Assembly (NCBI GenBank): GCA_948468595.1
Contig: CAOKIU010000005.1
Coordinates: 1,730-65,729, forward strand
DNA length: 64,000 bases
Direction of reading: 5' to 3'
From: an uncultured Christensenella sp.
Lineage (GTDB): Bacteria; Bacillota; Clostridia; Christensenellales; UBA1750
The position numbers and the translations under genes were made by a program. The notes beneath the pieces are model-generated. The model saw nothing but the letters and a program-made list of their open reading frames with translations. It did no database searches and had not been told where the DNA came from. Below, in pieces: positions 6,095 to 46,004 of the stretch. Position 1 is the stretch's first letter; every line of letters starts with the position of its first letter.

Positions 6095-7018
6095 CTACCC
6101 CTCCCCCTCCCGATAGAGGGCGAGCACCTCCCCGGCGCACTGCGCCAGCCGCTCCTTGACCGCTTCCGGCTCCAGCACCCTTACGCCGGCCCCAAAGCCC
6201 ATCAGGATCGAGAACCACATGCGCTCCATCGGCGCGCAGAAGCGGAGAATCGCGTCCCCGTTCTCCAGCTCCTCAACCAAGCTGCAATGCAGGTACTCCA
6301 TCGCCTGCTGCCGCGCCTCCTTTTTGCACAGCAACTTGACCTGAAGGACCGGCCGCGCGTCCGAGCGGGCGAGGCCGTCCAAAACCTCCTTGGCGCTCGC
6401 GTGCTCCCGGGTAAACGCGCCGGCCACGGGCCTTAGCGAGGTCACCCGCGGGAGCTTAAAGAGCCGGTAATCCCCCTTGAGTCTACAGTATGCCGCCAGG
6501 TACCACGCATACCACTGATAGGTCAGGGCCACCGGCTCCACCACGCGCAGGGTTTGCGCGCCCCGCGCGTCGGCATAGCCCATTTCCAGCGGCCGCTTTT
6601 CCGCAATCGCCCGCTCCATGGTGCGCAGGTACTCGTCCGTCTTGTCGCCCTCCCGCGCCGCGCCCAGATTGAGGAAGATCCGCTGGCCGCCGTCGCCCAC
6701 GGCAGAGAGCGTCTTTTCCAGCGTCTCCTTGATGCCGCGGCTGCCAACGGCGGTATCCAGCCCCTTTAGCGCGGCGATTACGTTGCGCCAATCCTCCGCG
6801 CTAGCGATCTGCTTGAGCACCTTGAACCCATCCTGGATGCAGTATCCGCCCCCGGCGCCGTAGAGGGAGACAACGGGGATGCCCGCCAGGCTCAGCGCCT
6901 CCATGTCGCGCACAATGGTGCGCTTGGAGACCTCAAAGCGCTCCGCCAGCTTTTGCGCGCTCACCGTTTCATGGCACAGCAGGTATACCGTCAGCGCGAT
7001 GAGCCGGTCCGTCTTCAT
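6095..7018 (-). CDS. YafY-type HTH plus WYL-domain transcriptional regulator
   Basis: Start at MKTDRLIALTVYLL... (ATG 7018), inside the longer track ORF. N-terminal HTH, then WYL-like YQWYAWYLAAYCRLKGDYRLFKL. Confidence 0.8.
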   Translation of the reverse strand: MKTDRLIALTVYLLCHETVSAQKLAERFEVSKRTIVRDMEALSLAGIPVVSLYGAGGGYCIQDGFKVLKQIASAEDWRNVIAALKGLDTAVGSRGIKETLEKTLSAVGDGGQRIFLNLGAAREGDKTDEYLRTMERAIAEKRPLEMGYADARGAQTLRVVEPVALTYQWYAWYLAAYCRLKGDYRLFKLPRVTSLRPVAGAFTREHASAKEVLDGLARSDARPVLQVKLLCKKEARQQAMEYLHCSLVEELENGDAILRFCAPMERMWFSILMGFGAGVRVLEPEAVKERLAQCAGEVLALYREGEG

Positions 7019-7065
7019 GTTTTTCCTCGCTTTCCTCTGCCCGGCCCGCGGGCGGCCGATGCGTC

Positions 7066-7797
7066 TTAAACGTGTATCTCCTTTAAGAAGAATTGGTTCA
7101 GCCGGTCGATGGTTTCCTCGCAGTAGAGACGCCCAATCGGGATCTCCGTGCCGTCCAGGAGCGTAACGACCGCCTTGGTGAATTTGCGCACGGCCGCCAG
7201 GCTGATGATGTATCCACGGTGACAGCGGACGAAGATCTCCTTGGGAAAGGACTCCGCAAACGCGGTAAAGCTGCCCGCAACATACATGGTGTGCGTTTTT
7301 CCATTGGTCGTGTGGATGGTGGCGGCGTGAATTCCGGAGACGATATAGAGCACGTCCCGATAGGGCATGCGGATGGTATAGCCCTTGCGCATGATCAAAA
7401 AACCCTCGTCCACCCGCAGGGACGTACACCGGTAACAGTAATCCAGGCAAGCGCCGATCTGCGCGGTGACGATGGGCTTTTTGATGTAGCGATAGGCCGA
7501 AACCTCGTATCCGCTGAGGATATAGCGGTCGCTGTTGGTCACAAAGATGATGGGGATGTTCTCATCGGTCTGGCGGATCTTCTGCGCCAGAGTAAACCCC
7601 GACATGAACTTAAACTCAATGTCCAGAAACAGGGCGTCAAAGACCCTCCCCTTCTCCCAAGCATCCCACAGATCCTCGGCCAAGGGATAGACCTCGACCG
7701 TGACATCCTGGTGATGTTGATTGTGACTCCAAACGTTGATTGCATGGAGCATACCGTCGACATATACTTGTTCATCCTCGCATACGGCAATATGCAT
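7066..7797 (-). CDS. LytTR-family response regulator (receiver plus LytTR)
   Basis: Start MHIAVCEDE follows AGGAGG. Receiver Asp in FLDIEF, Lys in YIKKP, and a C-terminal LytTR domain. Confidence 0.85.
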   Translation of the reverse strand: MHIAVCEDEQVYVDGMLHAINVWSHNQHHQDVTVEVYPLAEDLWDAWEKGRVFDALFLDIEFKFMSGFTLAQKIRQTDENIPIIFVTNSDRYILSGYEVSAYRYIKKPIVTAQIGACLDYCYRCTSLRVDEGFLIMRKGYTIRMPYRDVLYIVSGIHAATIHTTNGKTHTMYVAGSFTAFAESFPKEIFVRCHRGYIISLAAVRKFTKAVVTLLDGTEIPIGRLYCEETIDRLNQFFLKEIHV

Positions 7798-8362: not shown

Positions 8363-8410
8363 TAAAAAAACAACGGCGTCCCCACAGCCGTTGCGCTGTG
8401 GGGACGCCGT
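8363..8410 (-). terminator. strong rho-independent terminator ending the long redox operon
   Basis: 16-bp stem ACGGCGTCCCCACAGC/GCTGTGGGGACGCCGT followed by TGTTTTTTTA on the minus strand. Confidence 0.85.
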
Positions 8411-8431: not shown

Positions 8432-8680
8432 TTAAGCGGCGTTGATCTTGGCCAGGACTTCCTTTTCAAAGAAGTCCTTGGTGTTGTCGGAATTGAGGGA
8501 GAAGAGCTGGTCGCCAATGGTGACGCAGACGCCCTTTTGGCAGTTACCGGTGCAGAAGCTGCCGGCCAGCGTGACCTGATCCTCCAAATGGTGGAGCTTA
8601 ATGAGGGACTTTAAGCCCTCCAGAACAAAGTGAGAGCCCTTGACATGGCAGGCGCTGCCCAGGCAAACGGTGATCGTCAT
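8432..8680 (-). CDS. thioredoxin-like [2Fe-2S] ferredoxin (NuoE-like fold)
   Basis: Start MTITVCLGSACHVKGS follows AAGGAGGAG. Four Cys in the C..C....C...C pattern. Confidence 0.7.
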   Translation of the reverse strand: MTITVCLGSACHVKGSHFVLEGLKSLIKLHHLEDQVTLAGSFCTGNCQKGVCVTIGDQLFSLNSDNTKDFFEKEVLAKINAA

Positions 8681-8693: not shown

Positions 8694-9020
8694 TTACTTG
8701 CCCGCATTGAGCTGGCTGTCATGGATCGCGTCCAGCTTCCGGTTGCGGAAGTAGAGCGCCACATCAATGGAAATCTCAACAAAGTTCAGCACGTAGAAGA
8801 ACCAGCCGAGATAAAAGAGAAAGCCGCTGCCATTGCCGCTGGCAAAGAGAATGATCTTGCGGGCGATGCCGCAGACATAACCCACCAGCAAAAACACCTC
8901 GAAAAAGAGGCTCTTGCCCTTTGCGGTCCTGGAGATCCAGGACTTGCGGATGGAAATCGGCCAGGAGAGGCCGAAGCAGAGGATCATCAACGCTTCCAGC
9001 AATTCAGTCAGAAAGTCCAT
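8694..9020 (-). CDS. small 3-TM membrane protein, PQ-loop/SemiSWEET-like
   Basis: 108-aa hydrophobic ORF. WPISIRKSW...GKSL resembles a PQ-loop motif. The functional call is weak. Confidence 0.5.
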   Translation of the reverse strand: MDFLTELLEALMILCFGLSWPISIRKSWISRTAKGKSLFFEVFLLVGYVCGIARKIILFASGNGSGFLFYLGWFFYVLNFVEISIDVALYFRNRKLDAIHDSQLNAGK

Positions 9021-9036: not shown

Positions 9037-10635
9037 TTACTTATGTCTTCTATAATCGGGCAGCAGCTGGGGGGAGACGGTATCGGTTTCAACGCCCGCG
9101 GCCTTAAGCTCCTCCTTAAAGGCCTCCACGTGGGAAAGGGTGAGCTTTGCGGCCTTGACGCCCTGCGCCTTTGCGGCGGCGTTGCGGCCCGCGTTGCGGC
9201 CAAAGACGATGATATCCAGCAGGGAGTTGCCCATCAGCCGGTTTCTGCCGTGGATGCCGCCGACGGCCTCGCCCGCGACATAGAGGTTCTCCACGCCGCT
9301 CTGGCAATCGGCCGTGATGTCGATGCCGCCGTTCTGGTAGTGCAGGGTGGGGTAGATCAGGATCGGCTCCTTGCGGATGTCGATGCCGTACTTGCCGAAC
9401 ATGCGCATCATGGCGGGGATGCGCTTTTCAATGGTGCCCGCGCCGTTCTTCATCTCGATCATGGGCGTATCCAGCCACACGCCCACGCCGCCGGGGGTGG
9501 GAACGCCCTTGCCGCGCGTAGAGCACTCGCGGATGATGGAGGCCGCCGAAACGTCGCGCGTCTCCAGCGGGTGCATGAACGCCTCGCCGTCGCGGTTGAT
9601 GAGCATCGCGCCCACGGAGCGCACCTTCTCGGTGACCAGCGCGCCGAAGATCTGCTCGGGGAAGGCCGCGCCGGTGGGATGATACTGCAAGGTATCCGCG
9701 TAGAGGAGCTTCGCCCCCGCGCGGTAGGCCAGCACCAGTCCGTCGGCCGTGGCGCCATAGTGGTTGGAGGTGGGGAAGCCCTGGTAGTGCAGTCGCCCCG
9801 CGCCGCCGGTGGCCAGGATCACGGTCTTGGCCTTGGCCACGAGCAGCTCCTTGGTCTCCATGTTCATCAGCACCGCGCCCGCGGCCCGGCCGTTTTCGTC
9901 CTTGATGATCTCAATGGCGGCGGTGAAGTCCACCACGGGAATGCCGCGGCCCAGCACCTCGTCGCGCAGGGTGCGCATGATCTCCGCCCCGGAGTAGTCC
10001 TTGGCCGCGTGCATGCGCTTGCGGGAGGTACCGCCGCCGTGGGTGGTGATCATGGTGCCGTCCGCCGCCTTGTCAAACTCCACGCCCAGGTCGCTCAGCC
10101 ACTGAATCGCCTCGGGCGCCTCGGTCACCAGCGTGCGCAGCAGCTCCGGCTTGGCCGCGAAGTGCCCGCCGCCAAAGGCGTCTAGGTAGTGCTGGGCCGG
10201 GGAGTCGTTGGGCTTATCGGCGGCCTGAATGCCGCCCTCGGCCATCATGGTGTTGGCGTCGCCCATGCGCAGCTTGGTGACCACCATCACCTTGGCGCCC
10301 GCCTTGTCCGCCTCAATCGCCGCCGAGGCGCCCGCGCCGCCGCCGCCGATGATGAGCACGTCCACGTCGTAATCCGGGGCATTGAGGTCCACGTCCCCGG
10401 GCTGGACGCGGCTGTTGCCCTGGAGCAGAGCGCCCAGCTCCTTGGGCACCTTTTCGCCCTTGTTGGGGCCGACCGCAAGGTTGACAAACTCCGCGCCCTC
10501 CTTGTAGTCGGGATGGTAGGCGCGCAGCAGCGCGTCCTTTTCCTCGGCGGTCATTCTCCTGGGCTCGGTGGCGGCGTTCTCTTTGCGCCGCGCTTCCACC
10601 TTCTTGATGGATTCCAGCATTTCACTCGTGTACAT
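9037..10635 (-). CDS. fumarate reductase/succinate dehydrogenase-type flavoprotein (soluble FrdA-like)
   Basis: Start at MYTSEM (ATG 10635). FAD motif DVLIIGGGGAGASAA, HPTG active-site motif LQYHPTG, and a roughly 95-aa N-terminal extension. Confidence 0.85.
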   Translation of the reverse strand: MYTSEMLESIKKVEARRKENAATEPRRMTAEEKDALLRAYHPDYKEGAEFVNLAVGPNKGEKVPKELGALLQGNSRVQPGDVDLNAPDYDVDVLIIGGGGAGASAAIEADKAGAKVMVVTKLRMGDANTMMAEGGIQAADKPNDSPAQHYLDAFGGGHFAAKPELLRTLVTEAPEAIQWLSDLGVEFDKAADGTMITTHGGGTSRKRMHAAKDYSGAEIMRTLRDEVLGRGIPVVDFTAAIEIIKDENGRAAGAVLMNMETKELLVAKAKTVILATGGAGRLHYQGFPTSNHYGATADGLVLAYRAGAKLLYADTLQYHPTGAAFPEQIFGALVTEKVRSVGAMLINRDGEAFMHPLETRDVSAASIIRECSTRGKGVPTPGGVGVWLDTPMIEMKNGAGTIEKRIPAMMRMFGKYGIDIRKEPILIYPTLHYQNGGIDITADCQSGVENLYVAGEAVGGIHGRNRLMGNSLLDIIVFGRNAGRNAAAKAQGVKAAKLTLSHVEAFKEELKAAGVETDTVSPQLLPDYRRHK

Positions 10636-10651
10636 TTGCGCGCTTTCCTCC

Positions 10652-11326
10652 CTATTTTTCAATCTCGCGGTGGTTGTAAAGCTCTTTGATCTCCTCAATG
10701 GGCTTGCCCATCAGGTTCTCAAGCAGCTCGTTAAAGTCGCCGTTTTTGATCTCCTTGACGCGCTGGGCCAGGTGATCGCACTTGGGGGCCAGGTACTTGC
10801 CGTTTAGGCGCCTGGCCAGCATCGCCACCTGGGGATGGGAGATGCCCGCCGGGCACCGGGAGGAACACACGCCGCACATCACGCAGTCAAAGGACTCCTC
10901 GGCGCACTTTGCAAAGTCGCCGCGCTGGGCGTAGGCGATGTACTGCATGACGTTTAAGCCCTGGGTGCAGCTCTTGGTGCAGGCGTTGCAGCCGATGCAG
11001 GAATAGATCTCGGGGTAGAGCTGCATCATCACCGCCTGCTCGGGCTTGATGGCGTCCATGTCGTAGACCTGCTTAATCAGCGGGAAGAAGGGGAGGGTCG
11101 CCACGTACATGTTGTCCTCGACCTGGGTTTGGCAGGCCAGGCAGACCTTCAGCTCTCGGTCGCCCTTGACGCGGTAGATGGTCGCGCACGCGCCGCAAAA
11201 GCCGTTGCGGCAGCCGCAGCCGCGCACCAGCTGGTATCCCGCGTACTCCATGGCCTTCATAATGGTCAGGCTCGCGGGCACTTCGTATCGCTTTCCGAAC
11301 AGAAAAACATTGACCATGTTCTCCAT
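10652..11326 (-). CDS. FrdB/SdhB-like iron-sulfur subunit ([2Fe-2S] plus two [4Fe-4S]-type motifs)
   Basis: CGCRNGFCGACA, CIGCNACTKSC and CVMCGVCSSRCP. No membrane-anchor gene follows. Confidence 0.8.
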   Translation of the reverse strand: MENMVNVFLFGKRYEVPASLTIMKAMEYAGYQLVRGCGCRNGFCGACATIYRVKGDRELKVCLACQTQVEDNMYVATLPFFPLIKQVYDMDAIKPEQAVMMQLYPEIYSCIGCNACTKSCTQGLNVMQYIAYAQRGDFAKCAEESFDCVMCGVCSSRCPAGISHPQVAMLARRLNGKYLAPKCDHLAQRVKEIKNGDFNELLENLMGKPIEEIKELYNHREIEK

Positions 11327-11344
11327 GTGCTTTCTCTCTCCTTC

Positions 11345-12172
11345 TCAATACTCGCTGGGCAGCTGGCTCAGCTCGTCAAAGCGGAACACCGGCCCGTCCT
11401 TGCAGACGTACTTGTTGCCGATGTTGCATCTGCCGCACTTGCCCACGCCGCACTTCATGCGCAGCTCCATGGTGGTGTAGACCTGCGTTTCGGCAAAGCC
11501 CAGCTCCTTTAAGCCCTGTAGGGTGAACTTGATCATGATGGGCGGACCGCACAGGATCACCGTATAATCCTTGGCGGGGGCCAGCTCCTTGACGTAATTG
11601 GGCACAAAGCCCACGTGGCCGTCCCAATCGTCCTGCGGCCGGTCAATGGTCAGGTATACCTCCACGCCCTCGTCCTTCATCCACTCGGAGAGGATCTCGT
11701 CATAGTCCAGCAGGTCCTCCTTGGACCGGGAACCGTAGACGATCATGATGCGGCCGTAGTTCTCGCGCTTGGCGCGCACGTAGTTGATGACCGAGCGCAC
11801 CGGCGCCAGGCCCACGCCGCCGGCCACAAAGAGCAGGTCCTTGCCCCTGAACTCTTCCTCCACCGGGAAGTGCTTGCCGTAGGGCCCGCGGATGGTGATC
11901 TGCTGCCCCACGTCCATCTGGTGCAGCCAGTCGGTCAGACAGCCGCACTTTTTGATGCTGAACTCCATGTACTCCGTGTTGGTCGGGGAGGAGGTGATGG
12001 AGAACATCGCCTCGCCCACGCCCGGAATGGAGAGCATGGCGCACTGGCCGGGCATGTGGTCAAAGACCTTCTTGCCGTCCAGCCCCACCACGCGGAAGGT
12101 CTTGATGTCCGGGGTGTCGATGCGGATGTCCGTCACAACGCCCAGCTTGGGAATCAGCGTCTCCTGCGTCAT
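11345..12172 (-). CDS. FAD/NAD(P)-binding oxidoreductase with C-terminal [2Fe-2S] (FlxA/HydG/PyrK-like)
   Basis: FNR-like fold motifs LLFVAGGVGLAP and a C-terminal CGVGKCGRC. Confidence 0.8.
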   Translation of the reverse strand: MTQETLIPKLGVVTDIRIDTPDIKTFRVVGLDGKKVFDHMPGQCAMLSIPGVGEAMFSITSSPTNTEYMEFSIKKCGCLTDWLHQMDVGQQITIRGPYGKHFPVEEEFRGKDLLFVAGGVGLAPVRSVINYVRAKRENYGRIMIVYGSRSKEDLLDYDEILSEWMKDEGVEVYLTIDRPQDDWDGHVGFVPNYVKELAPAKDYTVILCGPPIMIKFTLQGLKELGFAETQVYTTMELRMKCGVGKCGRCNIGNKYVCKDGPVFRFDELSQLPSEY

Positions 12173-12173
12173 G

Positions 12174-13199
12174 CTATCTCACCTCTTTCGAAAGTTCTTT
12201 GGCCACTTTTACGATATTCATGGAGATGGGGCACTTGGAAAGGCATCTGCCGCAGCCCACGCAGCCGTACTGCCCGTCGTTGTTGGCGGGGAAGTAGACC
12301 AGCTTGTGCATGAACCGCTGGCGGAAGCGCTCCACCTGCGTAAGCCGCGGGTTGCCGTGCGCCATCTTGGTAAAATCGGAGTACATGCAGCTGTCCCAGC
12401 AGCGGAAGCGCCTGACCCCGTCGCCCGTGTCGAAATCGCGGATGTCGTAGCACTGGCAGGTGGGGCAGACAAAGGTGCAGGTGCCGCACCCCAGGCACGC
12501 CTGGGAGAGCTCCGCCCACTTTTCGGAGTCAAAGAGCGGGTTGAGGTGTTCCCCGTCAAAGCCCTCAAGGTTCAAGCCCGCCAGGGGCGTTTTCGCCATG
12601 ACGCGGCGCGTCTCCTCCTGCTGGCGCTGGACCGCGTCCTCCCCGCCGTCCTCCGCAAGCGCGCGGACGCTCTCCAGGAACTTATCGCCCTTTTGCGTGC
12701 GGGCGCTCAGGTAGAGGTATTCTTCGTCCATCCATACCTGCGCGTCGCCCTCGGGCGCGGCGGCGTCGATGCCAAAGGCGGAGCAGAAGCACGTCTCCTC
12801 CGGCTGGGTGCAGGCTAGGGTCACCACCGTGCCGTGCTCCCGCCGGGATTGATAGTAGGTGTCCACGGGATCGGCCAGAAACACCTTGTCCAGAATCTCG
12901 AAGCTGCGCGCGTCGCAGGCGCGCACGCCAAAGAGCACAAAGTCCTCCTGTTCGCTCCTGGGGTCGATGATCTCAATCTGCTTGCCCTTGACCTTAAAGT
13001 CCACCAGGTTCTCCGTCTGGGGGAAGAAGAAATCCTTGGCGCTGCGCACGGTGTTGAGCGCGCGGGCCATCTCCAGCCCCTCGTGCCAGCGGGTAAAGCG
13101 CGCCTGGCCGGATGCGTCCAGGGCGGGGATGTACAAGGGCTTATCGCGCCCCACGGCGGCAAGCAGCGCGCCGAGCTTTTCCTTGGCGATCTTTCTCAT
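12174..13199 (-). CDS. 4Fe-4S dicluster protein (FlxB/HydB/AsrA-like)
   Basis: Start MRKIAKEK at 13199, overlapping the upstream stop (ATGA). Motifs CLGCGTCTFVCPTC and CVGCGRCLSKCP. Confidence 0.8.
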   Translation of the reverse strand: MRKIAKEKLGALLAAVGRDKPLYIPALDASGQARFTRWHEGLEMARALNTVRSAKDFFFPQTENLVDFKVKGKQIEIIDPRSEQEDFVLFGVRACDARSFEILDKVFLADPVDTYYQSRREHGTVVTLACTQPEETCFCSAFGIDAAAPEGDAQVWMDEEYLYLSARTQKGDKFLESVRALAEDGGEDAVQRQQEETRRVMAKTPLAGLNLEGFDGEHLNPLFDSEKWAELSQACLGCGTCTFVCPTCQCYDIRDFDTGDGVRRFRCWDSCMYSDFTKMAHGNPRLTQVERFRQRFMHKLVYFPANNDGQYGCVGCGRCLSKCPISMNIVKVAKELSKEVR

Positions 13200-14170
13200 G
13201 CCTTCTTCCCTCCCTTGGTCACGATGCTGGGCTCCGCGTCGCCCTCGGTAAAGTTGGTCAGCGGCGCGCGGCTGACGGTGTCCTCGCCCGCCTGGTAGTC
13301 GCCGTAGAGGGTGTTGATGTCCTTGATGAACTTGCGGTTGAGCAGGTGCAGCGGGATGTTCTGCGGGCAGACCCTGGAGCACTCGCCACAGTCGGTGCAG
13401 CGCCCCGCCACGTGGAAGGCGCGGATGATGTGGAACATGTTCTCCTCAAAGCTGTCGGCAGCCGCCTTCTGCGCCACGCCGGAGGCATCGTTGTCAAAGA
13501 CGCACTTTTCGCACGAGCACGCGGGGCAGACGTTGCGGCAGGCGTTGCAGCGGATGCAGCGGGAGAGCTCGCCGCGCCAGAAGGCGAAGCGCTCCTCCGG
13601 GTCCATGGCCTCCAGCTTGTTGACCAGGTCAAAGCGGCCGCTGTCCAGCTTATCGCCCTCCTGACCCAGCAGTTCGTCATAGACCACGTGCTTTTTGCTC
13701 TTGCAGCTTAGGCACCGCTCGGGCAGGGCGTCCTTTTTCGCCATCGTCCGATCGCCGTAGAGGGTGTTGATGACGAAATCCTCCCCCTCGGTCTTGATGC
13801 CCAGGATGCCCTTGACGCCCTTTGCTTTGAGCGTCTCGCCGTCGGTCATGCCCTGGCAGGGCACGCCCACGACCAGAACGTTTTCCCGCACAATGCGGTG
13901 CTCCTTTATGAGCTGGTTGAAGGAATAGGTGTCGCAGGGCTTTAGGAAGGCCAGCACCTTGCCGCCCTTGCGCGACTCCTTAATCAGGTACTTGGAGAGG
14001 TTGTTGCCGCAAAAATCGTTGTAGACAAAGCCCGCTTCCAGCTCCTGTGCGCTGGCAAAGACGCAAGGGGTGATGTCGTAGGCGAATTCGCCCGCTTTCC
14101 AGCCGAGAACCCGATCGACGGCGCCGCTTTGCAAAAGCTCCTTGGCCTTTTCAAGCATTACTTCTTGCAT
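13196..14170 (-). CDS. FrhB-like/4Fe-4S protein (FlxC-like)
   Basis: Start MQEVMLEK at 14170. Motifs CIRCNACRNVCPAC and CTDCGECSRVCP. Confidence 0.75.
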   Translation of the reverse strand: MQEVMLEKAKELLQSGAVDRVLGWKAGEFAYDITPCVFASAQELEAGFVYNDFCGNNLSKYLIKESRKGGKVLAFLKPCDTYSFNQLIKEHRIVRENVLVVGVPCQGMTDGETLKAKGVKGILGIKTEGEDFVINTLYGDRTMAKKDALPERCLSCKSKKHVVYDELLGQEGDKLDSGRFDLVNKLEAMDPEERFAFWRGELSRCIRCNACRNVCPACSCEKCVFDNDASGVAQKAAADSFEENMFHIIRAFHVAGRCTDCGECSRVCPQNIPLHLLNRKFIKDINTLYGDYQAGEDTVSRAPLTNFTEGDAEPSIVTKGGKKA

Positions 14171-14595
14171 CTCAGATCCTCCAATCTCTTGTTCGGGCCC
14201 AGCTGGCGCACCGTCTCCACAAACTCGTTCATGGTGGCGGCGAACTTGGCGCCCTCGGCGGCGGAGACCCACTCCACGCGCGTGCGCTCCTTCTCAATGC
14301 CAAGGTAATCCAGCATCGAGAACAGCAGCGTCATGCGGCGGCGGGCGTAGTAGTTGCCGGTGGAATAGTGGCAGTCGCCCGGATGGCAGCCGCAAAGGAT
14401 CACGCCGTCCGCGCCGCGCTGGAACGCCCGCAGGATGAACATCGGGTTGACGCGGCAGGAGCAGGGCACCCGGATGATCTTGACATCCGCGGGGTAATTC
14501 AGGCGGTTGGTGCCCGCCAGGTCCGCGCCCGCGTAGGAGCACCAGTTGCAGCAAAAGGCAACGATTTTGGGCCGAAAGGTCTTTACATCTTGCAT
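14158..14595 (-). CDS. mvhD: MvhD/FlxD-like protein (methyl-viologen-reducing hydrogenase delta subunit family)
   Basis: Start MQDVKTFRPKIVAFCCNWCSYAGADLAG at 14595; this is the canonical MvhD N-terminus. Confidence 0.85.
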   Translation of the reverse strand: MQDVKTFRPKIVAFCCNWCSYAGADLAGTNRLNYPADVKIIRVPCSCRVNPMFILRAFQRGADGVILCGCHPGDCHYSTGNYYARRRMTLLFSMLDYLGIEKERTRVEWVSAAEGAKFAATMNEFVETVRQLGPNKRLEDLRCKK

Positions 14596-16580
14596 ATCGC
14601 GTCCACCTCCGCCATGATCTGGCTGTTCGAGAAGCCCTTTAAGTCCATCGCGCCCGAGGGGCAGGCCACCGTGCACGCGCCGCAGCCCTGGCAAACCGCC
14701 TCGTTTACCGACGCTACGCGCCGGATGGCCGTGGTGCGGTCGGGCATGCGGAACTCCTTGTCCTCATAGGTGATCGCGCCGTAGGGGCACACCTTTTCAC
14801 AGGAGGAGCAGCCGTTGCACATCAGTTGGTCCGCGTGCGCCACGCAGGGGTTGCAGGTGAGCTGATCCTTGCACAGCAGGCCGATGACCTTGGACGCGGC
14901 CGCGCCGGCCTGGGCCACGGTATCGGGAATGTCCTTGGGGCCCTGGCACGCGCCCGAAAGGAAGATGCCCGCCGTGGGGCTCTCCACGGGGCGGAGCTTT
15001 GCGTGGGCCTCGGTAAAGAAGTCGTTGGTATCCATGGATGCGGTCAGCATCGTGGCCAGGGGGCGCGCGGACTTGTCCGGCTCGATGGCCGCGGCCAGCA
15101 CCACCATGTCCGCCTCAATGTGCATCTGCTCGCCGGCCAGCAGGTCGCTGGCTTGCACCATCAGCTTTCCGTCGGAGCGGGGCGTGACCTTGCCCACCAT
15201 GCCCTTGACGTAGTGCACGCCGTAGTCCTCCACCGCGCGGCGGTAGAACTCGTCGTAGTTCTTGCCCGGGGACCGAACGTCAATGTAGAAGACGTAGACC
15301 TCGGTATCGGGGTACTTTTCGCGGGTGAGCATGGCGTGCTTTGCGGTGTACATACAGCAGATCTTGGAGCAATAGCTCTTTCCCTTGCCCTCCTGCGAAC
15401 ACCGCGACCCCACGCACTGGACAAAGACCAGGGTGTGCGGGTGCTTGCCGTCGGAGGGGCGCAGCAGCGTGCCGCCCGTGGGGCCCGCCGCGTTGGTCAG
15501 CCGCTCAAACTCCAGGGAGGAGACCACGTCCGGGCTCTGGGAATAGGCAAACTCGTCGTACTGATCGAGCTTGATGGGGTTGTAGCCCGTGGCCACCACA
15601 ATGGCGCCGTACTCCCGCTCGATCGTCTCGTCCTTCTGCTTGTAGTCAATCGCCCCCGCCGAGCATACCTTGGCGCACAGGCCGCACTTGCCGTTTTTGA
15701 GCATGTTGCAGTGGTCGGGATCGATGGTGGCCACCTTGGGCACGGCCTGGGCAAAGGGGATGTAGATGGCGCGGCGGTTGTCCAGCCCGAGGTTGAACTC
15801 GTTGGGGATCTTCTTCATGGGGCACTTTTCGGTGCACTCGCCGCACCCGGTGCACTTGGTCGTGTCCACATAGCGCGCCTTTTTGTTGATCTTGACGTGG
15901 AAGTTGCCCACAAAGCCCTTGACTTCCTCAACCTCGGAATAGGCAAAGATGTTGATCTTCTCATTCTGCGCGCAGTCCACCATCTTGGGGGTGAGGATGC
16001 AGGCGGCGCAGTCCAGGGTGGGGAAGGTCTTGTCAATCTGGGTCATCTTGCCGCCGATGGTGGGCTGCTTTTCCACGATATCCACCTCGAACCCGGCGTC
16101 GGCGATGTCCAGGGCCGTCTGGATGCCCGCGATGCCGCCGCCGATGACCAGCGCGCGCTTGGTCACGGGGCTCTGCCCCGCGGTCAGCGGCGCGTTGAGA
16201 TGCACCTTGGCAATGGCGGCGCGGCCCAGGATGATGGCCTTTTCGGTGGCCGCGGCCTTGTCCTTGTGAATCCAGGAGCATTGCTCGCGGATGTTGGCGA
16301 TCTCCACCATGTAGGGGTTCAGGCCCGTGGAGGCGACCGCCTTGCGGAAGGTCATCTCGTGCATGCGCGGCGAGCAGGAGCAGATCACAACGCCGGTGAG
16401 CTTGTGCTCGCGCACCGCGTCCTTGATCAGGTTCTGGCCCGCCTCGGAGCACATGTATTGATAGTTGGTGGAGAAGACGACGCCAGGCTCGTGAGAAAGG
16501 GCCTCGGAGACCGCGCTTACGTCCACGGTGGCGGCGATATTGCTGCCGCACCAACATACGAATACGCCAATTCTTTGCAT
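14583..16580 (-). CDS. hdrA: heterodisulfide reductase subunit A-like flavo-iron-sulfur protein
   Basis: 665 aa. MQRIGVFVCWCGSNIA, FAD motif ALVIGGGIAGIQTA, and several CxxCxxCxxxCP motifs. Confidence 0.9.
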   Translation of the reverse strand: MQRIGVFVCWCGSNIAATVDVSAVSEALSHEPGVVFSTNYQYMCSEAGQNLIKDAVREHKLTGVVICSCSPRMHEMTFRKAVASTGLNPYMVEIANIREQCSWIHKDKAAATEKAIILGRAAIAKVHLNAPLTAGQSPVTKRALVIGGGIAGIQTALDIADAGFEVDIVEKQPTIGGKMTQIDKTFPTLDCAACILTPKMVDCAQNEKINIFAYSEVEEVKGFVGNFHVKINKKARYVDTTKCTGCGECTEKCPMKKIPNEFNLGLDNRRAIYIPFAQAVPKVATIDPDHCNMLKNGKCGLCAKVCSAGAIDYKQKDETIEREYGAIVVATGYNPIKLDQYDEFAYSQSPDVVSSLEFERLTNAAGPTGGTLLRPSDGKHPHTLVFVQCVGSRCSQEGKGKSYCSKICCMYTAKHAMLTREKYPDTEVYVFYIDVRSPGKNYDEFYRRAVEDYGVHYVKGMVGKVTPRSDGKLMVQASDLLAGEQMHIEADMVVLAAAIEPDKSARPLATMLTASMDTNDFFTEAHAKLRPVESPTAGIFLSGACQGPKDIPDTVAQAGAAASKVIGLLCKDQLTCNPCVAHADQLMCNGCSSCEKVCPYGAITYEDKEFRMPDRTTAIRRVASVNEAVCQGCGACTVACPSGAMDLKGFSNSQIMAEVDAICKM

Positions 16581-16593
16581 CTTCTCTCCTCCT

Positions 16594-16977
16594 TTACTTG
16601 CTGTATTTGCGCATCGCGGTCACAATCGCCTGCTGGGGCAGGTCCTCGTCCAGCAGCGCGGGGATATCGTCGGGGGTGAGGTGATTTGCGCCCTGCCGGC
16701 GAATGACTTGCAGCCGCACGGCCTCCACCACCTTTGCCGGCTCCACGCCCCTGGGGCAGCGCTCCACGCAGGCATAGCAGGAGAGGCACTTGTAGATGGA
16801 CTTGGACGCCATCAGCTTTTCAATGTCGCCCTTTTCCACCATGTAGACGAATTGATGCGGATGGTACTCCATCTCGTCATAGGAGGGGCAGGTCGCGCTG
16901 CACTTGCCGCAGCGCATGCATTTGAGCACGTTTACGCCGCTGGTATGCAGGATCTGCTCCTTGTCAAACTTGTTCAT
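16594..16977 (-). CDS. hdrC: HdrC-like 4Fe-4S dicluster subunit
   Basis: CMRCGKCSATCP and CLSCYACVERCP; position between hdrB and hdrA. Confidence 0.85.
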   Translation of the reverse strand: MNKFDKEQILHTSGVNVLKCMRCGKCSATCPSYDEMEYHPHQFVYMVEKGDIEKLMASKSIYKCLSCYACVERCPRGVEPAKVVEAVRLQVIRRQGANHLTPDDIPALLDEDLPQQAIVTAMRKYSK

Positions 16978-16993
16978 TTTGTCTCTCCTTCCG

Positions 16994-17782
16994 TCAATCC
17001 TTGACGCCGAGGGCCTCGGCCAGCAGCTCGGTAAAGTAGAGAACCGGCAGCCGCCCCTCCTTGAGGGTGTTCTTCTTTAAGTTGTAAAGGCACAGGGGAC
17101 AGGCCGTTACGATGGCCTCGGCGCCCATGTCGCGGGCGTTGTCCATCACCCTTTCGCTCTTTTGGGCCGCCAGGCCGCGGTCCTCCATCACCGCGTAGCC
17201 GCCGCAGCACTCGTTGCGCATGGCCCACGTCACCGGCTGGGCGCCGATGGCGCGCAGGAAATCCTCCATGATGCGGGGATTTTCCGGGTTGTCCATGCCC
17301 ATGACCTTGCTGGGCCGAAGCAGCAGGCAGCCGTAATAGGCGGCGATCTTCCGGCCCGTCAGGGGCTTTACGACCGCCTTTTTGAGGGCCTCAAAGCCCA
17401 CCCTGTCGCGCAGCAGCTCCAAATAGTGGATCACCTGCGTCTCGCCCCTGTAGGGGGCGGCCAGCTGCATGTAGTTGTTGGCGCGCAGCGAAAAATCCGC
17501 GTCGTTGGCCATGGCGTCGTTGGCCTGCTTGAGCACGTTGTGGCAGGCCGAGCAGAGGGTGACCAAATCGCGCCCCTGCTCCTTGGCGGCGTTTAATGCC
17601 CGGACGGAGGCCAGCTTGCTGGCGATTTCGTCCCTTCCCATGGAAAAGGCGCCGCCGCAGCACTGCCACTCCTCCAGCTCTTCCAGCGCAACGCCCAGCT
17701 TCTCGGCCGAAAGGCGCGCATACCGGTCCAGGTCCTGCGCCTTGTTCTTGAGCGTGCAGCCGGGGTAGTAACTAAAGATCAT
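16994..17782 (-). CDS. hdrB: HdrB-like CCG-domain subunit
   Basis: Two CCG motifs (WQCCGG, ECCGG) and CSAC/CPLC pairs. Confidence 0.85.
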   Translation of the reverse strand: MIFSYYPGCTLKNKAQDLDRYARLSAEKLGVALEELEEWQCCGGAFSMGRDEIASKLASVRALNAAKEQGRDLVTLCSACHNVLKQANDAMANDADFSLRANNYMQLAAPYRGETQVIHYLELLRDRVGFEALKKAVVKPLTGRKIAAYYGCLLLRPSKVMGMDNPENPRIMEDFLRAIGAQPVTWAMRNECCGGYAVMEDRGLAAQKSERVMDNARDMGAEAIVTACPLCLYNLKKNTLKEGRLPVLYFTELLAEALGVKD

Positions 17783-17808
17783 ATCCGTTCCCTTCCCTTT
17801 TTCATCAC

Positions 17809-19185
<1,377 letters not shown>

Positions 19186-19247
19186 AGCGTTTTATCACTC
19201 TTTCCTTCCATAAAATCCCTTCGCAGCCCCGGCCGGGGCGCGCGGCG

Positions 19248-20195
19248 TCAGATTTCGATGCTGCCAATGACCGCCTTGAGGCTGTCGGCGCTCTTGTGCA
19301 GCAGCGCGGTCTCCTCCGGGGTCAGGGGCGCCACGATCTTGCCCGCCAGGCCGCCCGCGCCCACGATGGACAGGGTGCTCAGGCACACGTCCTCAATGCC
19401 GTACTCGCCGTGCATCATGCTGGAGACCGTCATGGCCGTATCCGCGCCGGAGAAGACGCATTTGCAGATGTGGCAGACGGAGACCGCCACCGCGTAGAAG
19501 GTCGCGCCCTTGCGCTCGATGATCTTGCCGCCCGACTTGCGGATGTAGCTCTCCACCTCTTCATGCACGAGCTTGGGCTCCACAATCTCGGAGCTGGTCA
19601 GGCACTCGGCGTACTTGTCGATGGCGATGTTGGAGATGGTTCCCATGGACCAGGGCACAAAGGAGGTATCGCCGTGCTCGCCAAAGACGTAGGCATGCAC
19701 GTTCTGCTGGTTGATGTTGTAATACTCCGCCAGGCGCGCGCGAAGTCTTGCGGTGTCCAGGATGGTGCCCGAGCCGATGATCTGCTTTTCCGGCAGGCCG
19801 GAGACCTTGTTAAAGACATAGGTGAGGATATCCACGGGGTTGCTGACGATGATGTAAACGGCGTTGGGCGCGTATTTTACGATCTGGGGCACGATGGACT
19901 TGGTGATGTTGACGTTGACCTGCGCAAGCTCCAAGCGGGTCTGGCCGGGCTTCCTGGCAAGGCCGGAGGTGAGGATGACGATATCGGAGTTCTGCGCATC
20001 CTGATAGCTGCCGGCGTAGATGGAGACCGGGGGGCAGAAGGGAACGCCCTGGCGGATGTCCAGCGCCTCGCCCATGGCCTTGCCCTCGTTGATGTCGATC
20101 ATGACGATTTCCGTGGCGATGCCGCCCACGGCCATGGTGTAGGCGATGGTGGAACCCACGCTGCCCGCTCCAATGATGGTAACCTTTTTGCCCAT
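19248..20195 (-). CDS. mdh: LDH-type malate dehydrogenase
   Basis: Rossmann motif IIGAGSVG. The substrate-loop sequence GLARKPGQTR has Arg where L-LDHs carry Gln, which favours malate. Confidence 0.75.
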   Translation of the reverse strand: MGKKVTIIGAGSVGSTIAYTMAVGGIATEIVMIDINEGKAMGEALDIRQGVPFCPPVSIYAGSYQDAQNSDIVILTSGLARKPGQTRLELAQVNVNITKSIVPQIVKYAPNAVYIIVSNPVDILTYVFNKVSGLPEKQIIGSGTILDTARLRARLAEYYNINQQNVHAYVFGEHGDTSFVPWSMGTISNIAIDKYAECLTSSEIVEPKLVHEEVESYIRKSGGKIIERKGATFYAVAVSVCHICKCVFSGADTAMTVSSMMHGEYGIEDVCLSTLSIVGAGGLAGKIVAPLTPEETALLHKSADSLKAVIGSIEI

Positions 20196-20252
20196 AAGTG
20201 TTTCCTCCCTATTTCTTTGCGGCTCTTTAGGCCGCTTTTTTGTCTTAGAACT

Positions 20253-20897
20253 TTAGGTAAGGTCCTTTTGCTCCTCCACCTTTAAGTGGTAGGAAAGCAG
20301 CGCCAGGGAGCTTGCCATGTTCTCCCGCTGGACCAGCACGCCCTTGGGGGCTGTCAAGTGCACGGGGGCAAAGTTCCACACCGCCTTGACGCCGCCTTGA
20401 ATCAGCGCGTTTAGGCAGGTCTGCGCCGCGCTGCCCGGCACCGCCAGTATGCCGATGCTCACGCGCTCCCGCCGCAGAAAGGCGGGCAGCTCCTCAATGG
20501 ATAGGACGGGCTTGCCGTCCACCGTCGTGCCCACCAGGGCGCTCTTTTTGTCAAACGCCGCCACGATGTCCAGTCCGTAGTCCGCAAACCCCCCGTAGGA
20601 AAGCAGCGCCAGGCCCAGGTTCCCCACCCCCACCAGCACCGCGCGGTTGCGCGTGCCGCAGCCCAGAAACGCCTCAAGGTCCCGCCGCAGCTCGTCGATG
20701 CGGTAGCCCACCTTGGGCTTGCCCGCCACGCTCACAGCCGCAAGGTCCTTGCGTACCTGCACCTCTCCCAGCCCCAGGGCCGAGGCAATGGACGAGGCCG
20801 AAACCGTGCCCCCGCCGTCGTTGGGTAGGGATTGCAGATAGGCCAGGTAGGTCGGCAGCCGCTGAAGGGTGAGCTTGGAAATACCGCCCTGCTCCAT
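20253..20897 (-). CDS. rex: redox-sensing repressor Rex
   Basis: Start MEQGGISKLTLQRLPTYLAYL at 20897. Rossmann motif VLVGVGNLG and NFAP. Confidence 0.9.
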   Translation of the reverse strand: MEQGGISKLTLQRLPTYLAYLQSLPNDGGGTVSASSIASALGLGEVQVRKDLAAVSVAGKPKVGYRIDELRRDLEAFLGCGTRNRAVLVGVGNLGLALLSYGGFADYGLDIVAAFDKKSALVGTTVDGKPVLSIEELPAFLRRERVSIGILAVPGSAAQTCLNALIQGGVKAVWNFAPVHLTAPKGVLVQRENMASSLALLSYHLKVEEQKDLT

Positions 20898-20944
20898 TTC
20901 GCCTTGCCCTCCTCTCCCGGTGATCTTTGCGCCTCCGCCCTTCA

Positions 20945-20964
20945 ATCGATAAATTTTTATCGAT
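20945..20964. promoter_or_regulatory. perfect 20-bp palindrome ATCGATAAATTTTTATCGAT upstream of rex
   Basis: 9-bp arms ATCGATAAA/TTTATCGAT, 48 nt upstream of the rex start. It does not match the Rex box consensus. Confidence 0.4.
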
Positions 20965-21247
20965 AATGGGCAAAGAAAATGACTCCTCGCGCTTCGCTTT
21001 TGGGGAACGGCCTCCCCCTTGAGGAGAACCGCGCGGGCGTCGCCGCTTAAGTCTGTTAATAATATATCACAATCCAATCCCGATGAAAAGTATTTTACAT
21101 AAAAAACGACAAGATTTTTCATAAAAAACCGCCTTATTTCCGACATTTTTGCTTGGAATTCCGCGTCATGCCCCAAAAAGCGCGAAGGGCCGCGCGGATT
21201 CGTCGGTCTTTATGCGCGCCCAATGAGGGCGGGGCAACAAATATGCA

Positions 21248-21276: not shown

Positions 21277-21469
21277 CAAAATATAATTAGAAAGGACGCC
21301 GAACCGCCCAGGCGCTTGGATTTCAAACGGGGCGCGAGCGGCGTAAAAGGCTATCGGCGCGACGGTTGATTTCGACGTATATTTTTGAAGAAATGAGCGC
21401 GCAACCAGTCGTTCTAGGCAACAATAGGAACACTTTTCTCAAAAGAAAGACAAAAGGAGGATGAGCCGC

Positions 21470-22546
21470 ATGAGCAGGCTTACAAAACTCGCCCGGCTGA
21501 CCAAGGAATTGGGATTGGACGCGATGCTGCTGACCCATGAGGAAAACATGCATTACGCAACCCTGTTCCCCCATCTGGAGGGCATGGTGCTGGTCATGCG
21601 GGATGGGGAGGGCGTGTGCTTTACCGATTCCCGCTACATTGAAAACGCAACGCAGGTCATGGCGCCGCAGGGTTACGCGGTGGTGGAGCCGGAGGGCTCC
21701 TACCCGACGGTGGAGACCATACGGGACTTTGTCGCCTCGCGCGGCATCCGCGCGCTGGGTTTTGAGGATATCACCATGCCGGTTAGCGTTTTCGAGAGCT
21801 ACCGCGCGGCGCTGCCCTGCGAGCTGATCCCGCTGGGCGACGCGGTCCTTAAGATGCGCCAATCCAAGGAGGAGGAGGAGATCGCCTGCCTGGTCAAGGC
21901 GCAGCGCATCGCCGAGGAGGCGCTGCAACAGCTCCTGCCGGAGATCCGCGTGGGCGCCTATGAGGACGAGCTGGCGGCAAAGCTGGTGTACCTGATGAAC
22001 CTTGGCGGGTCCCAGGCCTCGGTGATGCCCATCTTTGTCTCGGGCGCCAAGACCTCCATGCCGCACGGCCGGCCGTCGCACAAGGCCATTGAGGAGGGAG
22101 ACTTTGTCACCATCGACATGGGCGCGATTGTGGATGGCTACATGTCGGACATGACGCGCACCTTTGCCGTGGGCAGCGCGAGCGAGGAAATGCGCAAGGT
22201 CTATTCCATCGTTCTTGCCGCGCAGCAAGCGGGCATCGACGCCTTTGCCGAGGGCATGCGCGGCTGCGACGTGGATAAGGCCGCCCGCGACGTGATCGAG
22301 GGCGCGGGCTACGGCGCGCACTTTGGCCACGGCCTGGGCCACAGCCTGGGACTCAACATCCATGAGGACCCCCGCGCCAGCCGCACCTACACCGGCGTCT
22401 TCCCCGCCCGCTCCATCGTCACCATTGAGCCGGGCATCTACCTGCCGGGCCGCTTCGGCGTGCGCATCGAGGACATGGTGTGGCTCTCCCCCCAGGGCAA
22501 GCAGAACCTCACCGCCTTCCCCAAGGAGCTGATGATCCTGCCCTAG
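21470..22546 (+). CDS. M24B Xaa-Pro dipeptidase/aminopeptidase (creatinase-N plus M24)
   Basis: The second ATG (21470) sits 9 nt after AAGGAGG. Metal-ligand context DMGAIVDGYMSDMTRT, HGLGHSLGLNIHE and IEPGIY. Confidence 0.9.
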   Translation: MSRLTKLARLTKELGLDAMLLTHEENMHYATLFPHLEGMVLVMRDGEGVCFTDSRYIENATQVMAPQGYAVVEPEGSYPTVETIRDFVASRGIRALGFEDITMPVSVFESYRAALPCELIPLGDAVLKMRQSKEEEEIACLVKAQRIAEEALQQLLPEIRVGAYEDELAAKLVYLMNLGGSQASVMPIFVSGAKTSMPHGRPSHKAIEEGDFVTIDMGAIVDGYMSDMTRTFAVGSASEEMRKVYSIVLAAQQAGIDAFAEGMRGCDVDKAARDVIEGAGYGAHFGHGLGHSLGLNIHEDPRASRTYTGVFPARSIVTIEPGIYLPGRFGVRIEDMVWLSPQGKQNLTAFPKELMILP

Positions 22547-44997: not shown

Positions 44998-45091
44998 CTC
45001 ATACTCCTCCTCAATTTAATTCCAACATGCACCTTTACCATTCTCAAGCTTTTATTCCCAATGTAGTAAAGGCGACATCATTCTTGACGCT

Positions 45092-45256
45092 TGCACTGCT
45101 GTTAACGCCAATCCAAATTGAGAATATCCCTGTCTTTTTCGATACTTTTGCAACTGAAGACATGTTCATCAATAGATCTCCACAGCATCTCCGAAGCAAG
45201 GTTTGTACAGAAAAAAGTGGCCCTGCCTTTCTGATCAATTGCGTTCAGGTACATTA
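45092..45256 (-). CDS. short PqqD-like (RiPP recognition element-like) protein, 54 aa
   Basis: Below the track cutoff. MSCIMYLNAIDQKGRATFFCTNLASEMLWRSIDE... follows the PqqD pattern (x-LN-x-ta-x-iW). A G7 tract abuts the ATG. Confidence 0.4.
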
Positions 45257-45981: not shown

Positions 45982-46004
45982 GAATAGTAACGAGTACAGG
46001 ATGA

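Follow-up and report, generated by a model that had tools for sequence, protein, structure and literature searches.

Genes and layout of the operon

The window analysed here is a 64,000-nucleotide (nt) stretch of contig CAOKIU010000005.1 from an uncultured Christensenella sp., and all coordinates are positions in it. Between 20897 and 8432 its minus strand carries 14 co-directional open reading frames (ORFs), whose starts are preceded by plausible ribosome-binding sites, and the operon that they form is the subject of this study. Read on that strand, it begins with rex, a gene of the lactate dehydrogenase (LDH) family that is called mdh below, and fumC, continues with a seven-gene Flx-Hdr-like module and with genes for FrdB-like and FrdA-like proteins, and closes with a small membrane protein and a ferredoxin (Table 1). 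An initial annotation had described a single 14-gene unit from rex (20897) to a strong terminator, and every one of its domain assignments was borne out by Pfam and NCBIfam.

Table 1. Genes and signals of the operon in the order of transcription, with the gene next to it upstream (aa, amino acids; RBS, ribosome-binding site; TM, transmembrane).
Feature	Position	Strand	Size	Evidence
Next gene upstream, M24 aminopeptidase, divergent	21461-22546	+		
Putative sigma-70 promoter	21053..21089	-		TTTTCA-17-TATATT, extended TG; inferred from a consensus scan
Weak Rex-like site GTGATATATTATTAACAG	21070-21053	-		3 mismatches; overlaps the predicted -10 element
Candidate variant Rex operator TCGATAAAAATTTATCGA	20946..20963	-		Perfect 9+9 palindrome, 49 nt before the rex start codon
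rex, redox-sensing repressor	20253..20897	-	214 aa	NCBIfam NF003994, 261.6 bits (cut-off 130)
mdh, LDH-family NAD-dependent dehydrogenase, predicted malate dehydrogenase	19248..20195	-	315 aa	Ldh_1_N, Ldh_1_C
fumC, class II fumarate hydratase	17809..19185	-	458 aa	TIGR00979, 716 bits (cut-off 664.75)
hdrB-like	16994..17782	-	262 aa	Pfam CCG x2, both motifs complete
hdrC-like, 2x[4Fe-4S] protein	16594..16977	-	127 aa	Fer4_8/Fer4_17; two CxxCxxCxxxCP motifs
hdrA, full-length FAD/FeS subunit	14583..16580	-	665 aa	NCBIfam HdrA2 model, 802.7 bits
mvhD/flxD, [2Fe-2S] connector	14158..14595	-	145 aa	Pfam FlpD, 191.9 bits
flxC-like FeS protein	13196..14170	-	324 aa	Pfam Fer4_8; C-terminal half FdhB/FrhB-like
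flxB, HydB/AsrA-like FeS protein	12174..13199	-	341 aa	Fer4_22
flxA, FAD/NAD(P)H-binding, [2Fe-2S]	11345..12172	-	275 aa	FAD_binding_6, NAD_binding_1, DHODB_Fe-S_bind
frdB-like FeS subunit	10652..11326	-	224 aa	Fer2_4 and Fer4; SdhB-type [2Fe-2S] and two four-Cys [4Fe-4S] sites
frdA-like catalytic flavoprotein	9037..10635	-	532 aa	Pfam FAD_binding_2, 242 bits, residues 92-472
Small 3-TM membrane protein	8694..9020	-	108 aa	AlphaFold (AF2) model with three helices, mean confidence (pLDDT) 74.6
Thioredoxin-like [2Fe-2S] ferredoxin	8432..8680	-	82 aa	Pfam 2Fe-2S_thioredx, 31 bits
Intrinsic terminator	8373..8410	-		16-pair stem with 12 GC pairs, then the T-run TGTTTTTTTA

Consecutive genes overlap by up to 13 nt or are separated by up to 62 nt. 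Overlaps of 13 nt each were found at hdrA/flxD and flxD/flxC, the flxC and flxB genes also overlap, and flxB and flxA are 1 nt apart. The gaps of 60 nt or less that had been claimed for the whole unit hold for nearly all junctions, the 62 nt between mdh and fumC being the exception. The predicted strong terminator was located as a stem at 8410-8373, directly 3' of the ferredoxin gene. Because the operon is bounded by this terminator, by a divergent gene upstream and by a different gene downstream (a LytTR response regulator), it is well delimited.

On the coding strand, no internal T-run terminator was found from rex to the final terminator, apart from one weak 6-pair match inside hdrB. In the rex-mdh gap there is a hairpin (GCGGC-CTAAAGA-GCCGC, 20219-20235) whose T-run lies only on the non-coding plus strand, where no convergent gene ends. 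The same gap contains no promoter-like site, and no coding-strand T-run follows the hairpin. This structure is compatible with co-transcription of rex and mdh, although it is not a proof of it; the hairpin itself may serve in RNA stability or processing instead of acting as a terminator. Scans for Rfam families and tRNAs found none anywhere in the window, so no riboswitch or leader of a known family is present.

A soluble FrdA-like flavoprotein and its FeS partner

The FrdA-like protein contains FAD_binding_2 as its only Pfam domain, is preceded by a 91-aa N-terminal extension and does not possess the Succ_DH_flav_C domain. Its best curated family was TfrA (NF004900), the match covering positions 6-426 of the 546 in the model and scoring 345.3 bits where the cut-off is 718, while the generic Sdh/Frd and NadB models followed at 276-279 bits. 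Alignments and a tree were built with E. coli FrdA, SdhA and NadB from NC_000913 and with representative relatives labelled by NCBIfam. In the neighbour-joining tree (421 trimmed columns, 100 bootstraps), the window protein and its relatives formed a clade split at 100% from a group containing NadB, FrdA/SdhA and TfrA, and within this clade the window protein was sister (99%) to an archaeal group.

Residues H319, T335, E336, R339, R360, H432 and R466 of the window protein align with His232, Thr244, Glu245, Arg248, Arg287, His355 and Arg390 of E. coli FrdA, and these seven dicarboxylate-site residues are invariant in the family alignments. The position of the covalent-FAD (flavin adenine dinucleotide) histidine, His44, is occupied by N128 in the window protein and by Asn across the family. 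E. coli FrdA variants at H44 retain fumarate reduction but are poor in succinate oxidation. An AlphaFold model of the protein (mean pLDDT 72.7) matched E. coli FrdA (1kf6_A) best, with a template modelling score (TM) of 0.66.

An identity as L-aspartate oxidase was not supported. The TIGR00551 score was 276.3 against a cut-off of 452.75, the window family falls outside the NadB clade (97% bootstrap), and the diagnostic Glu121 of NadB (in 'TREGGHS') aligns with Gly200 of the window protein. Hence the grouping with aspartate oxidase, which had been named beforehand among the outcomes that would refute the reading, was not seen in the tree.

The FrdB-like subunit can be aligned colinearly with E. 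coli FrdB, to which it is 26% identical. Its third cluster site reads CxxCxxCxxxCP, at the place where quinone-linked enzymes bind [3Fe-4S], and Pfam detected no CCG domain in it. The TfrB model was covered in pieces by three proteins of the operon, namely the FrdB-like subunit (19-150), HdrC (132-219) and HdrB (384-487). The frdB and frdA genes adjoin in every context examined, and a relative of 727 aa (P0123) is a natural FrdB-FrdA fusion. No membrane anchor subunit is encoded in the operon, in which the sole membrane protein (108 aa, three helices) is unrelated to FrdC/D or SdhC/D. The anchorless FrdAB-like pair of the initial annotation was thus confirmed, with all catalytic residues for fumarate reduction conserved. 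Because anchor subunits, the covalent-FAD histidine, the Succ_DH_flav_C domain and the [3Fe-4S] site are all lacking, the enzyme is probably not quinone linked.

The Flx-Hdr module

Between fumC and frdB lie seven genes in which the initial annotation had seen the FlxABCD-HdrABC complex in reverse order. The domain types agree with this description, and the heptad is present with a full-length HdrA and an HdrB bearing two CCG motifs; the order of the hdr genes, B-C-A, makes the mirror image inexact.

HdrA aligned with the bifurcating methanogen HdrA of 5ODC at 707.5 bits over residues 3-661 and contains both ferredoxin domains. The cysteine motifs of HdrB, read from the sequence, are C9..C41C42..C77xxC80 and C151..C191C192..C227xxC230. 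Its scores were 110-138 bits to methanogen HdrB structures and 149.7 bits to the model of SdhE, the CCG protein of methylmenaquinol:fumarate reductase. The HdrC-like protein matched HdrC models below their cut-offs.

On the input side, the FlxC-like protein matched 7bkb_E, the FdhB of the Fdh-Hdr complex, with an E value of 3.7e-25; in 7BKB, FdhB feeds HdrA via MvhD. FlxB matched the sulfhydrogenase beta subunit 9nez_B (E 8.7e-40), and FlxA is both HydG/AsrB-like and PyrK-like, so that FlxA and FlxB resemble the gamma/beta pair of NAD(P)H-linked sulfhydrogenases.

Conservation in gut Clostridia and distant contexts

A scan of species-representative genomes gave at least 80 loci with a FrdA-like protein of 75-88% identity. 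Synteny was counted by tblastn with all 14 window proteins on related loci, the core being counted where enough upstream DNA was available. The nine-gene core hdrB-hdrC-hdrA-flxD-flxC-flxB-flxA-frdB-frdA was colinear in 59/59 loci, which is far beyond chance. Directly before hdrB, fumC was found in 55/57 loci, and an LDH-family gene preceded fumC in 43 of 54. The tail is variable, with the small membrane protein in 14/68 loci and the ferredoxin in 7/68, and so is the position of rex, which lies upstream in some relatives and downstream, as memb-rex-fd, in others. Almost all of the loci from the scan belong to gut or rumen Clostridia, and the carriers live mostly in human, livestock and poultry guts. 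Cultured carriers include Christensenella tenuis and Yeguia hominis, and the cultured Neobittarella massiliensis is among the protein matches. Metagenomic data add thousands of matching proteins. A figure of 591 relatives was not used as the family size, since it rests on short patterns common to all Sdh/Frd/NadB proteins.

In FrdA-like relatives of 45-55% identity, the N-terminal extension and the adjoining FrdB-like gene are retained, while the other partners differ. A search with a 55%-identical representative (P0121) led to archaeal clades. In a Bathyarchaeota genome (CP070659.1, L081:6440-11662), frdB and frdA follow malic enzyme and the alpha and beta genes of a class I fumarase, with a CCG protein and a 2-oxoacid:ferredoxin oxidoreductase a few kb upstream of this row. 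As class I fumarase is not homologous to FumC, this context would be an independent link of the flavoprotein family to fumarate. An Asgardarchaeia metagenome-assembled genome (MAG; GCA_052584985.1, L082:2563-11656) has the order hdrA-mvhD-mvhG-mvhA-hycI-hdrC-hdrB-frdB-frdA, in which the HdrB adjoining frdBA is 44% identical to the window HdrB (233 bits). This union of a methanogen-type [NiFe] hydrogenase-Hdr cluster with frdBA suggests an H2-dependent, possibly bifurcating fumarate reductase. On MAG contigs of marine Gammaproteobacteria (L083/L084:9366-12891), frdB-like and frdA-like genes are followed by a NuoF-like gene (Complex1_51K + NADH_4Fe-4S), a trio that we regard as a putative minimal soluble NADH:fumarate reductase without Hdr. 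In a Prochlorococcus genome (L089) and in the fusion protein mentioned above, the frdA/frdB pair stands alone.

These contexts fit a modular arrangement in which FrdBA would be the core of a soluble fumarate reductase, HdrCB would usually connect it to a bifurcating HdrA, and Flx (for NADH) or Mvh (for H2) would be alternative inputs. A tentative proposal, to which we give slightly less than an even chance, is that soluble fumarate reductases built around FrdBA, with interchangeable input modules, form a cross-domain class that is as yet uncharacterised.

Head and tail genes

The Rex protein is composed of the Pfam domains Put_DNA-bind_N and CoA_binding. In the LDH-family protein, the substrate loop SGLARKPGQTR carries an arginine at the position of LDH Gln102, which is the classical determinant of specificity for oxaloacetate over pyruvate, and this arginine is also kept in the operon-linked copies of relatives. 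The initial annotation had called the gene an LDH-type mdh with Arg in the loop. The arginine is indeed present, but the protein scores as an L-LDH in NCBIfam. From the loop residue we predict a malate dehydrogenase (MDH), although automated annotation will probably call the gene a lactate dehydrogenase. Many genomes of gut Clostridia probably contain genes of this kind under the wrong label of LDH. The co-encoding of the steps from oxaloacetate through malate to fumarate, which had been remarked upon before, held up as well, since the MDH-type gene with its arginine and fumC are co-conserved with the core.

The small membrane protein has a strongly conserved motif, CFGLSWPISIRKSWxSRTAKGKSLFFE, and 2544 homologues, of which the best 120 listed are all unnamed or 'hypothetical'. 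Pfam gave no match at E <= 10. Its top Foldseek matches were the SemiSWEET 4x5m (E 0.048, TM 0.66/0.75) and the mitochondrial pyruvate carrier (MPC), none of them with E <= 0.001; a SemiSWEET/MPC-like small carboxylate carrier is a possible, weakly indicated identity for the modelled fold. The ferredoxin at the tail has the cysteine motif C6x4C11...C43x3C47.

Putative promoter and candidate Rex operator

The canonical Rex box TTGTKAANNNNTTMACAA (TTGTKAAnnnnTTMACAA type), searched with up to 3 mismatches, was not found near the operon and gave only chance-level matches in the window. A relaxed pattern that admits the TTGATAA half-site found in relatives recovered the palindrome TCGATAAAAATTTATCGA at 20963-20946, which has 2 symmetrical mismatches to TTGWKAANNNNTTMWCAA. 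Half-sites of the TTGATAA/TTATCAA type also lie upstream of the operon in relatives. Within 200 nt before the first operon gene, sites with no more than 2 mismatches to TTGWKAANNNNTTMWCAA were present in 17/56 relatives, where about 1 would be expected from the background of 0.018 per 200 nt. The Rex-like operators predicted upstream in relatives fit an NADH-consuming function, and control of the window operon by Rex would be in line with them.

Comparison with known systems

The idea of a fumarate reductase linked to Flx-Hdr is not new, and the window operon joins a proposed enzyme class. A 'succinate operon' of Pseudoclostridium thermosuccinogenes was described by Koendjbiharie et al. (BMC Microbiol 2020, PMC7282089), who proposed a fumarate reductase coupled to a bifurcating, ferredoxin-reducing Flx-Hdr complex and cited Koendjbiharie & van Kranenburg (Preprints 2019, 10.20944/preprints201912.0288.v1). 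The literature search found no other paper that cites this preprint. This organism is a succinate producer in which the operon genes are expressed at thousands of FPKM (fragments per kilobase per million) and change together about 4-fold; added H2 abolishes its succinate formation, which the authors read as ferredoxin coupling (PMC7282089). The initial annotation had called the arrangement uncharacterised. This stands as far as biochemistry is concerned, none having been found, but both the arrangement and its function had already been proposed for P. thermosuccinogenes (PMC7282089).

The two operons have in common the order fumC, hdrB, hdrC, five-gene block, the two reductase genes (frdB and frdA in the window) and small hypothetical gene, with lengths of 1365/783/324/5347/675/1602/249 nt in P. 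thermosuccinogenes (PMC7282089 supplement) and 1377/789/384/5236/675/1599/327 nt in the window. Only the window has rex and the MDH-type gene at the head and the [2Fe-2S] ferredoxin at the tail, and its small membrane protein has 108 aa against about 83. The hosts differ too, that of the window being a high-GC gut or rumen-type member of the Clostridia whereas P. thermosuccinogenes is thermophilic.

FlxABCD-HdrABC of Desulfovibrio vulgaris (Ramos et al. 2015) is a seven-gene module of the same domain types, the likeness being drawn by description only. Compared with it, the window order is roughly reversed (hdrBCA-flxDCBA), the module is operonically joined to frdBA and fumC, and the operon contains no DsrC-like gene. 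The acceptor proposed for the Desulfovibrio complex is the DsrC disulfide, in ethanol metabolism.

TfrAB of Methanothermobacter is a soluble thiol:fumarate reductase that depends on coenzyme M (CoM-SH) and coenzyme B (CoB-SH), and its TfrB is one fused protein. TfrAB is soluble and anchorless and links CCG chemistry of the Hdr type to fumarate, as is predicted for the window enzyme; TfrA P0208, which passes the NF004900 cut-off, likewise has no covalent-FAD histidine. Unlike TfrA, the window protein has no TfrA C-terminal domain, carries the 91-aa N-terminal extension and falls in a separate clade from P0208. Where TfrB fuses an SdhB-like FeS part with two CCG domains, the window encodes separate FrdB-like, HdrC and HdrB proteins, and the expected electron donor is NADH via Flx-HdrA rather than free thiols.

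In the methanogen complexes MvhADG-HdrABC and Fdh-MvhD-HdrABC (5ODC, 7BKB), HdrA, HdrB, HdrC and MvhD are close homologues of the window proteins, and FlxC is like FdhB. The shared logic would be an input module that passes electrons through MvhD to the HdrA FAD and from there to ferredoxin and to HdrCB. The window differs in its NADH-type Flx input and in its predicted acceptor, which is fumarate via FrdBA instead of CoM-S-S-CoB. With E. coli FrdABCD, finally, the window enzyme shares the catalytic residues, the flavoprotein fold (TM 0.66 to 1kf6_A) and the 2Fe-2S motif of the FeS subunit, whereas the anchors, covalent-FAD histidine, Succ_DH_flav_C domain and [3Fe-4S] site of the E. coli enzyme have no counterpart in it. 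No Flx-Hdr complex was found among the PDB structures searched.

Proposed function of the operon

With somewhat more confidence than doubt, we propose that the gene products make up the reductive C4 branch, by which oxaloacetate is turned into succinate, and that its last step is carried out by a cytoplasmic, electron-bifurcating fumarate reductase complex that does not depend on quinones. The basis observed in this analysis is the gene content, the domain content, the catalytic residues and the conserved synteny, and co-expression is known from the homologous operon. From these we infer a physical complex with NADH as donor and fumarate as acceptor and with bifurcation to ferredoxin. The cytoplasmic complex that oxidises NADH and reduces fumarate, as first suggested for this locus, is well supported in silico, every sequence-level element having held.

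In the proposed mechanism, the LDH-family enzyme with Arg in its loop would reduce oxaloacetate to malate with NADH, and FumC would dehydrate malate to fumarate. FlxA would oxidise NADH and hand the electrons on to FlxB, FlxC and FlxD, the MvhD-like connector, from which they would reach the FAD in HdrA, where the pair would be split. One electron would go to ferredoxin through the ferredoxin domains of HdrA. The other would take the downhill route, first to HdrC, then to the non-cubane clusters of HdrB, next to the three FrdB-like clusters and finally to the FAD that the FrdA-like protein binds non-covalently, at which fumarate would be reduced. The net reaction would be 2 NADH + fumarate + oxidised ferredoxin -> 2 NAD+ + succinate + reduced ferredoxin, analogous to that of Bcd-Etf with crotonyl-CoA. 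Ferredoxin has a potential of about -450 mV. With +33 mV for fumarate and -320 mV for NADH (PMC5861303), the energy of the net reaction calculated from standard potentials is roughly -40 kJ per reaction. Rex would derepress the operon as NADH/NAD+ rises, in keeping with an NADH sink, and the small membrane protein may move a C4-dicarboxylate.

Several points weigh against this proposal. In the neighbour-joining tree, none of the characterised Frd, Sdh, Tfr and NadB clades includes the FrdA-like family; since this family is uncharacterised, the substrate assignment rests on the catalytic residues, which NadB shares, and on gene context. The 'mdh' protein passes the NCBIfam L-LDH cut-offs (348.5 vs 339) and misses the curated MDH models (266.6 vs 283), and the palindrome TCGATAAAAATTTATCGA departs from the canonical Clostridial Rex box at 4 positions. 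The equivalence with the P. thermosuccinogenes operon was judged by gene order and length only, and a literature search retrieved neither a biochemical characterisation of any member nor the phrase 'bifurcating fumarate reductase'. The NuoF-like variant of the Gammaproteobacteria is a frdBA core without Hdr, which makes bifurcation uncertain. In addition, the intact CCG motifs of HdrB allow a thiol intermediate, as CCG motifs in methanogens form a disulfide-reducing site. Direct electron transfer is nevertheless favoured because only one CCG protein is encoded and because CCG proteins such as SdhE partner SdhAB directly.

Alternative explanations

The best surviving alternative, which we consider unlikely though worth keeping in mind, is a non-bifurcating soluble NADH:fumarate oxidoreductase, in which Flx-HdrA-HdrCB would be a mere wire from NADH to FrdBA and no ferredoxin would be reduced. 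Electron flow from NADH to fumarate is strongly exergonic unaided, and to judge from marine Gammaproteobacteria the core can evidently work with a simple input, a single NuoF-like NADH module without Hdr. A wire, however, can hardly explain why a complete HdrA, which retains both ferredoxin domains and reaches 707 bits to 5ODC, is maintained with seven accessory genes in 59/59 loci, and the inhibition of succinate formation by H2 in P. thermosuccinogenes suggests ferredoxin coupling (PMC7282089).

A thiol-mediated system in two steps appears a degree less probable. Flx-HdrABC would here reduce a disulfide carrier, either a low-molecular-weight thiol or a DsrC-like protein, and FrdBA would re-oxidise the thiol with fumarate in the manner of Tfr. 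In favour of it, TfrA is the curated family that the flavoprotein matches best, the FrdB-like, HdrC and HdrB proteins each cover a part of the TfrB model, both CCG motifs of HdrB are intact, and Flx-Hdr has been described as an NADH dehydrogenase/heterodisulfide reductase (Ramos 2015, as cited in PMC7282089). Such a scheme, however, needs two sites, one making and one reducing the disulfide, whereas the operon encodes one CCG protein, a FrdB-like subunit without a CCG domain, and no thiol-carrier or DsrC-like gene. Clostridia are not expected to contain CoM or CoB, and CCG proteins can be plain electron-transfer partners of SdhAB, as SdhE is.

It is very unlikely that the true substrate of the flavoprotein is not fumarate but L-aspartate or another enoate or dicarboxylate, or that the complex is physiologically a succinate dehydrogenase. 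The clade does stand apart from every characterised fumarate reductase, and the NadB and Sdh/Frd scores are about equal (276-279 bits). On the other hand, Glu121 of NadB is replaced by Gly, the NadB cut-off is missed (276 vs 452.75), and frdBA is linked to one fumarase in some lineages and to a non-homologous one in others. As for a succinate dehydrogenase, non-covalent FAD (N128) is known to disfavour succinate oxidation, and driving NAD+ reduction with reduced ferredoxin and succinate is unfavourable at standard potentials.

That rex, mdh/fumC, Flx-Hdr and frdBA are merely adjacent, as independent units with separate functions and transcripts, is most unlikely in spite of the variable position of rex among relatives and the hairpin between rex and mdh, given gaps of at most 62 nt, overlapping junctions, no internal T-run terminator on the coding strand, the 59/59 core synteny and the regulation of the P. 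thermosuccinogenes genes as a block.

Surroundings of the operon

The genes that flank the operon (peptidases, a peptide ATP-binding cassette transporter, regulators, a major facilitator superfamily protein, a P-type ATPase and serine hydroxymethyltransferase) showed no link to it. The same was seen for the regulators at 3055-3513, 6095-7021, 7066-7797 and 41107-42486, which are two LytTR-domain proteins (one of them a response regulator), a WYL/HTH/WCX regulator and a GHKL SpoOB-like histidine kinase.

Farther away, positions 44000-48500 form a low-GC island (GC 0.40-0.42 vs about 0.62 elsewhere) with reversed GC-skew and ORFs of very low GC at third codon positions. On its plus strand are separate PEP-utilizers (46357-46689) and PPDK_N (47331-48221) fragments. 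The island looks like horizontally acquired, possibly disrupted DNA of the phosphoenolpyruvate (PEP)-synthase or rifampin-phosphotransferase type.

Significance

As far as the searchable literature shows, the cross-domain modular variants have not been discussed, and an experimental test gains in value through them. Those of archaea and Gammaproteobacteria are natural experiments on the modularity of Hdr-based complexes. If the modular reading is true, MvhADG with HdrABC in Asgard archaea would couple H2 oxidation to the reduction of fumarate and ferredoxin, and Flx with HdrABC in gut Clostridia would be a new type of flavin-based electron-bifurcating enzyme. Provided that the proposed chemistry holds, fumarate would join crotonyl-CoA, caffeyl-CoA, heterodisulfide and a few others as a high-potential acceptor that drives ferredoxin reduction by bifurcation.

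The operon is common, with a FrdA-like protein at least 75% identical in at least 80 species-representative genomes. It could matter for succinate, hydrogen and redox balance in the gut, and also for engineered succinate production. If the proposed function is true, it would account for the energy that Clostridia with neither quinones nor cytochromes draw from the reductive C4 branch. Together with Rnf or a hydrogenase, it would then amount, in many species of the gut and rumen, to a 'fumarate respiration' that needs no quinone or cytochrome.

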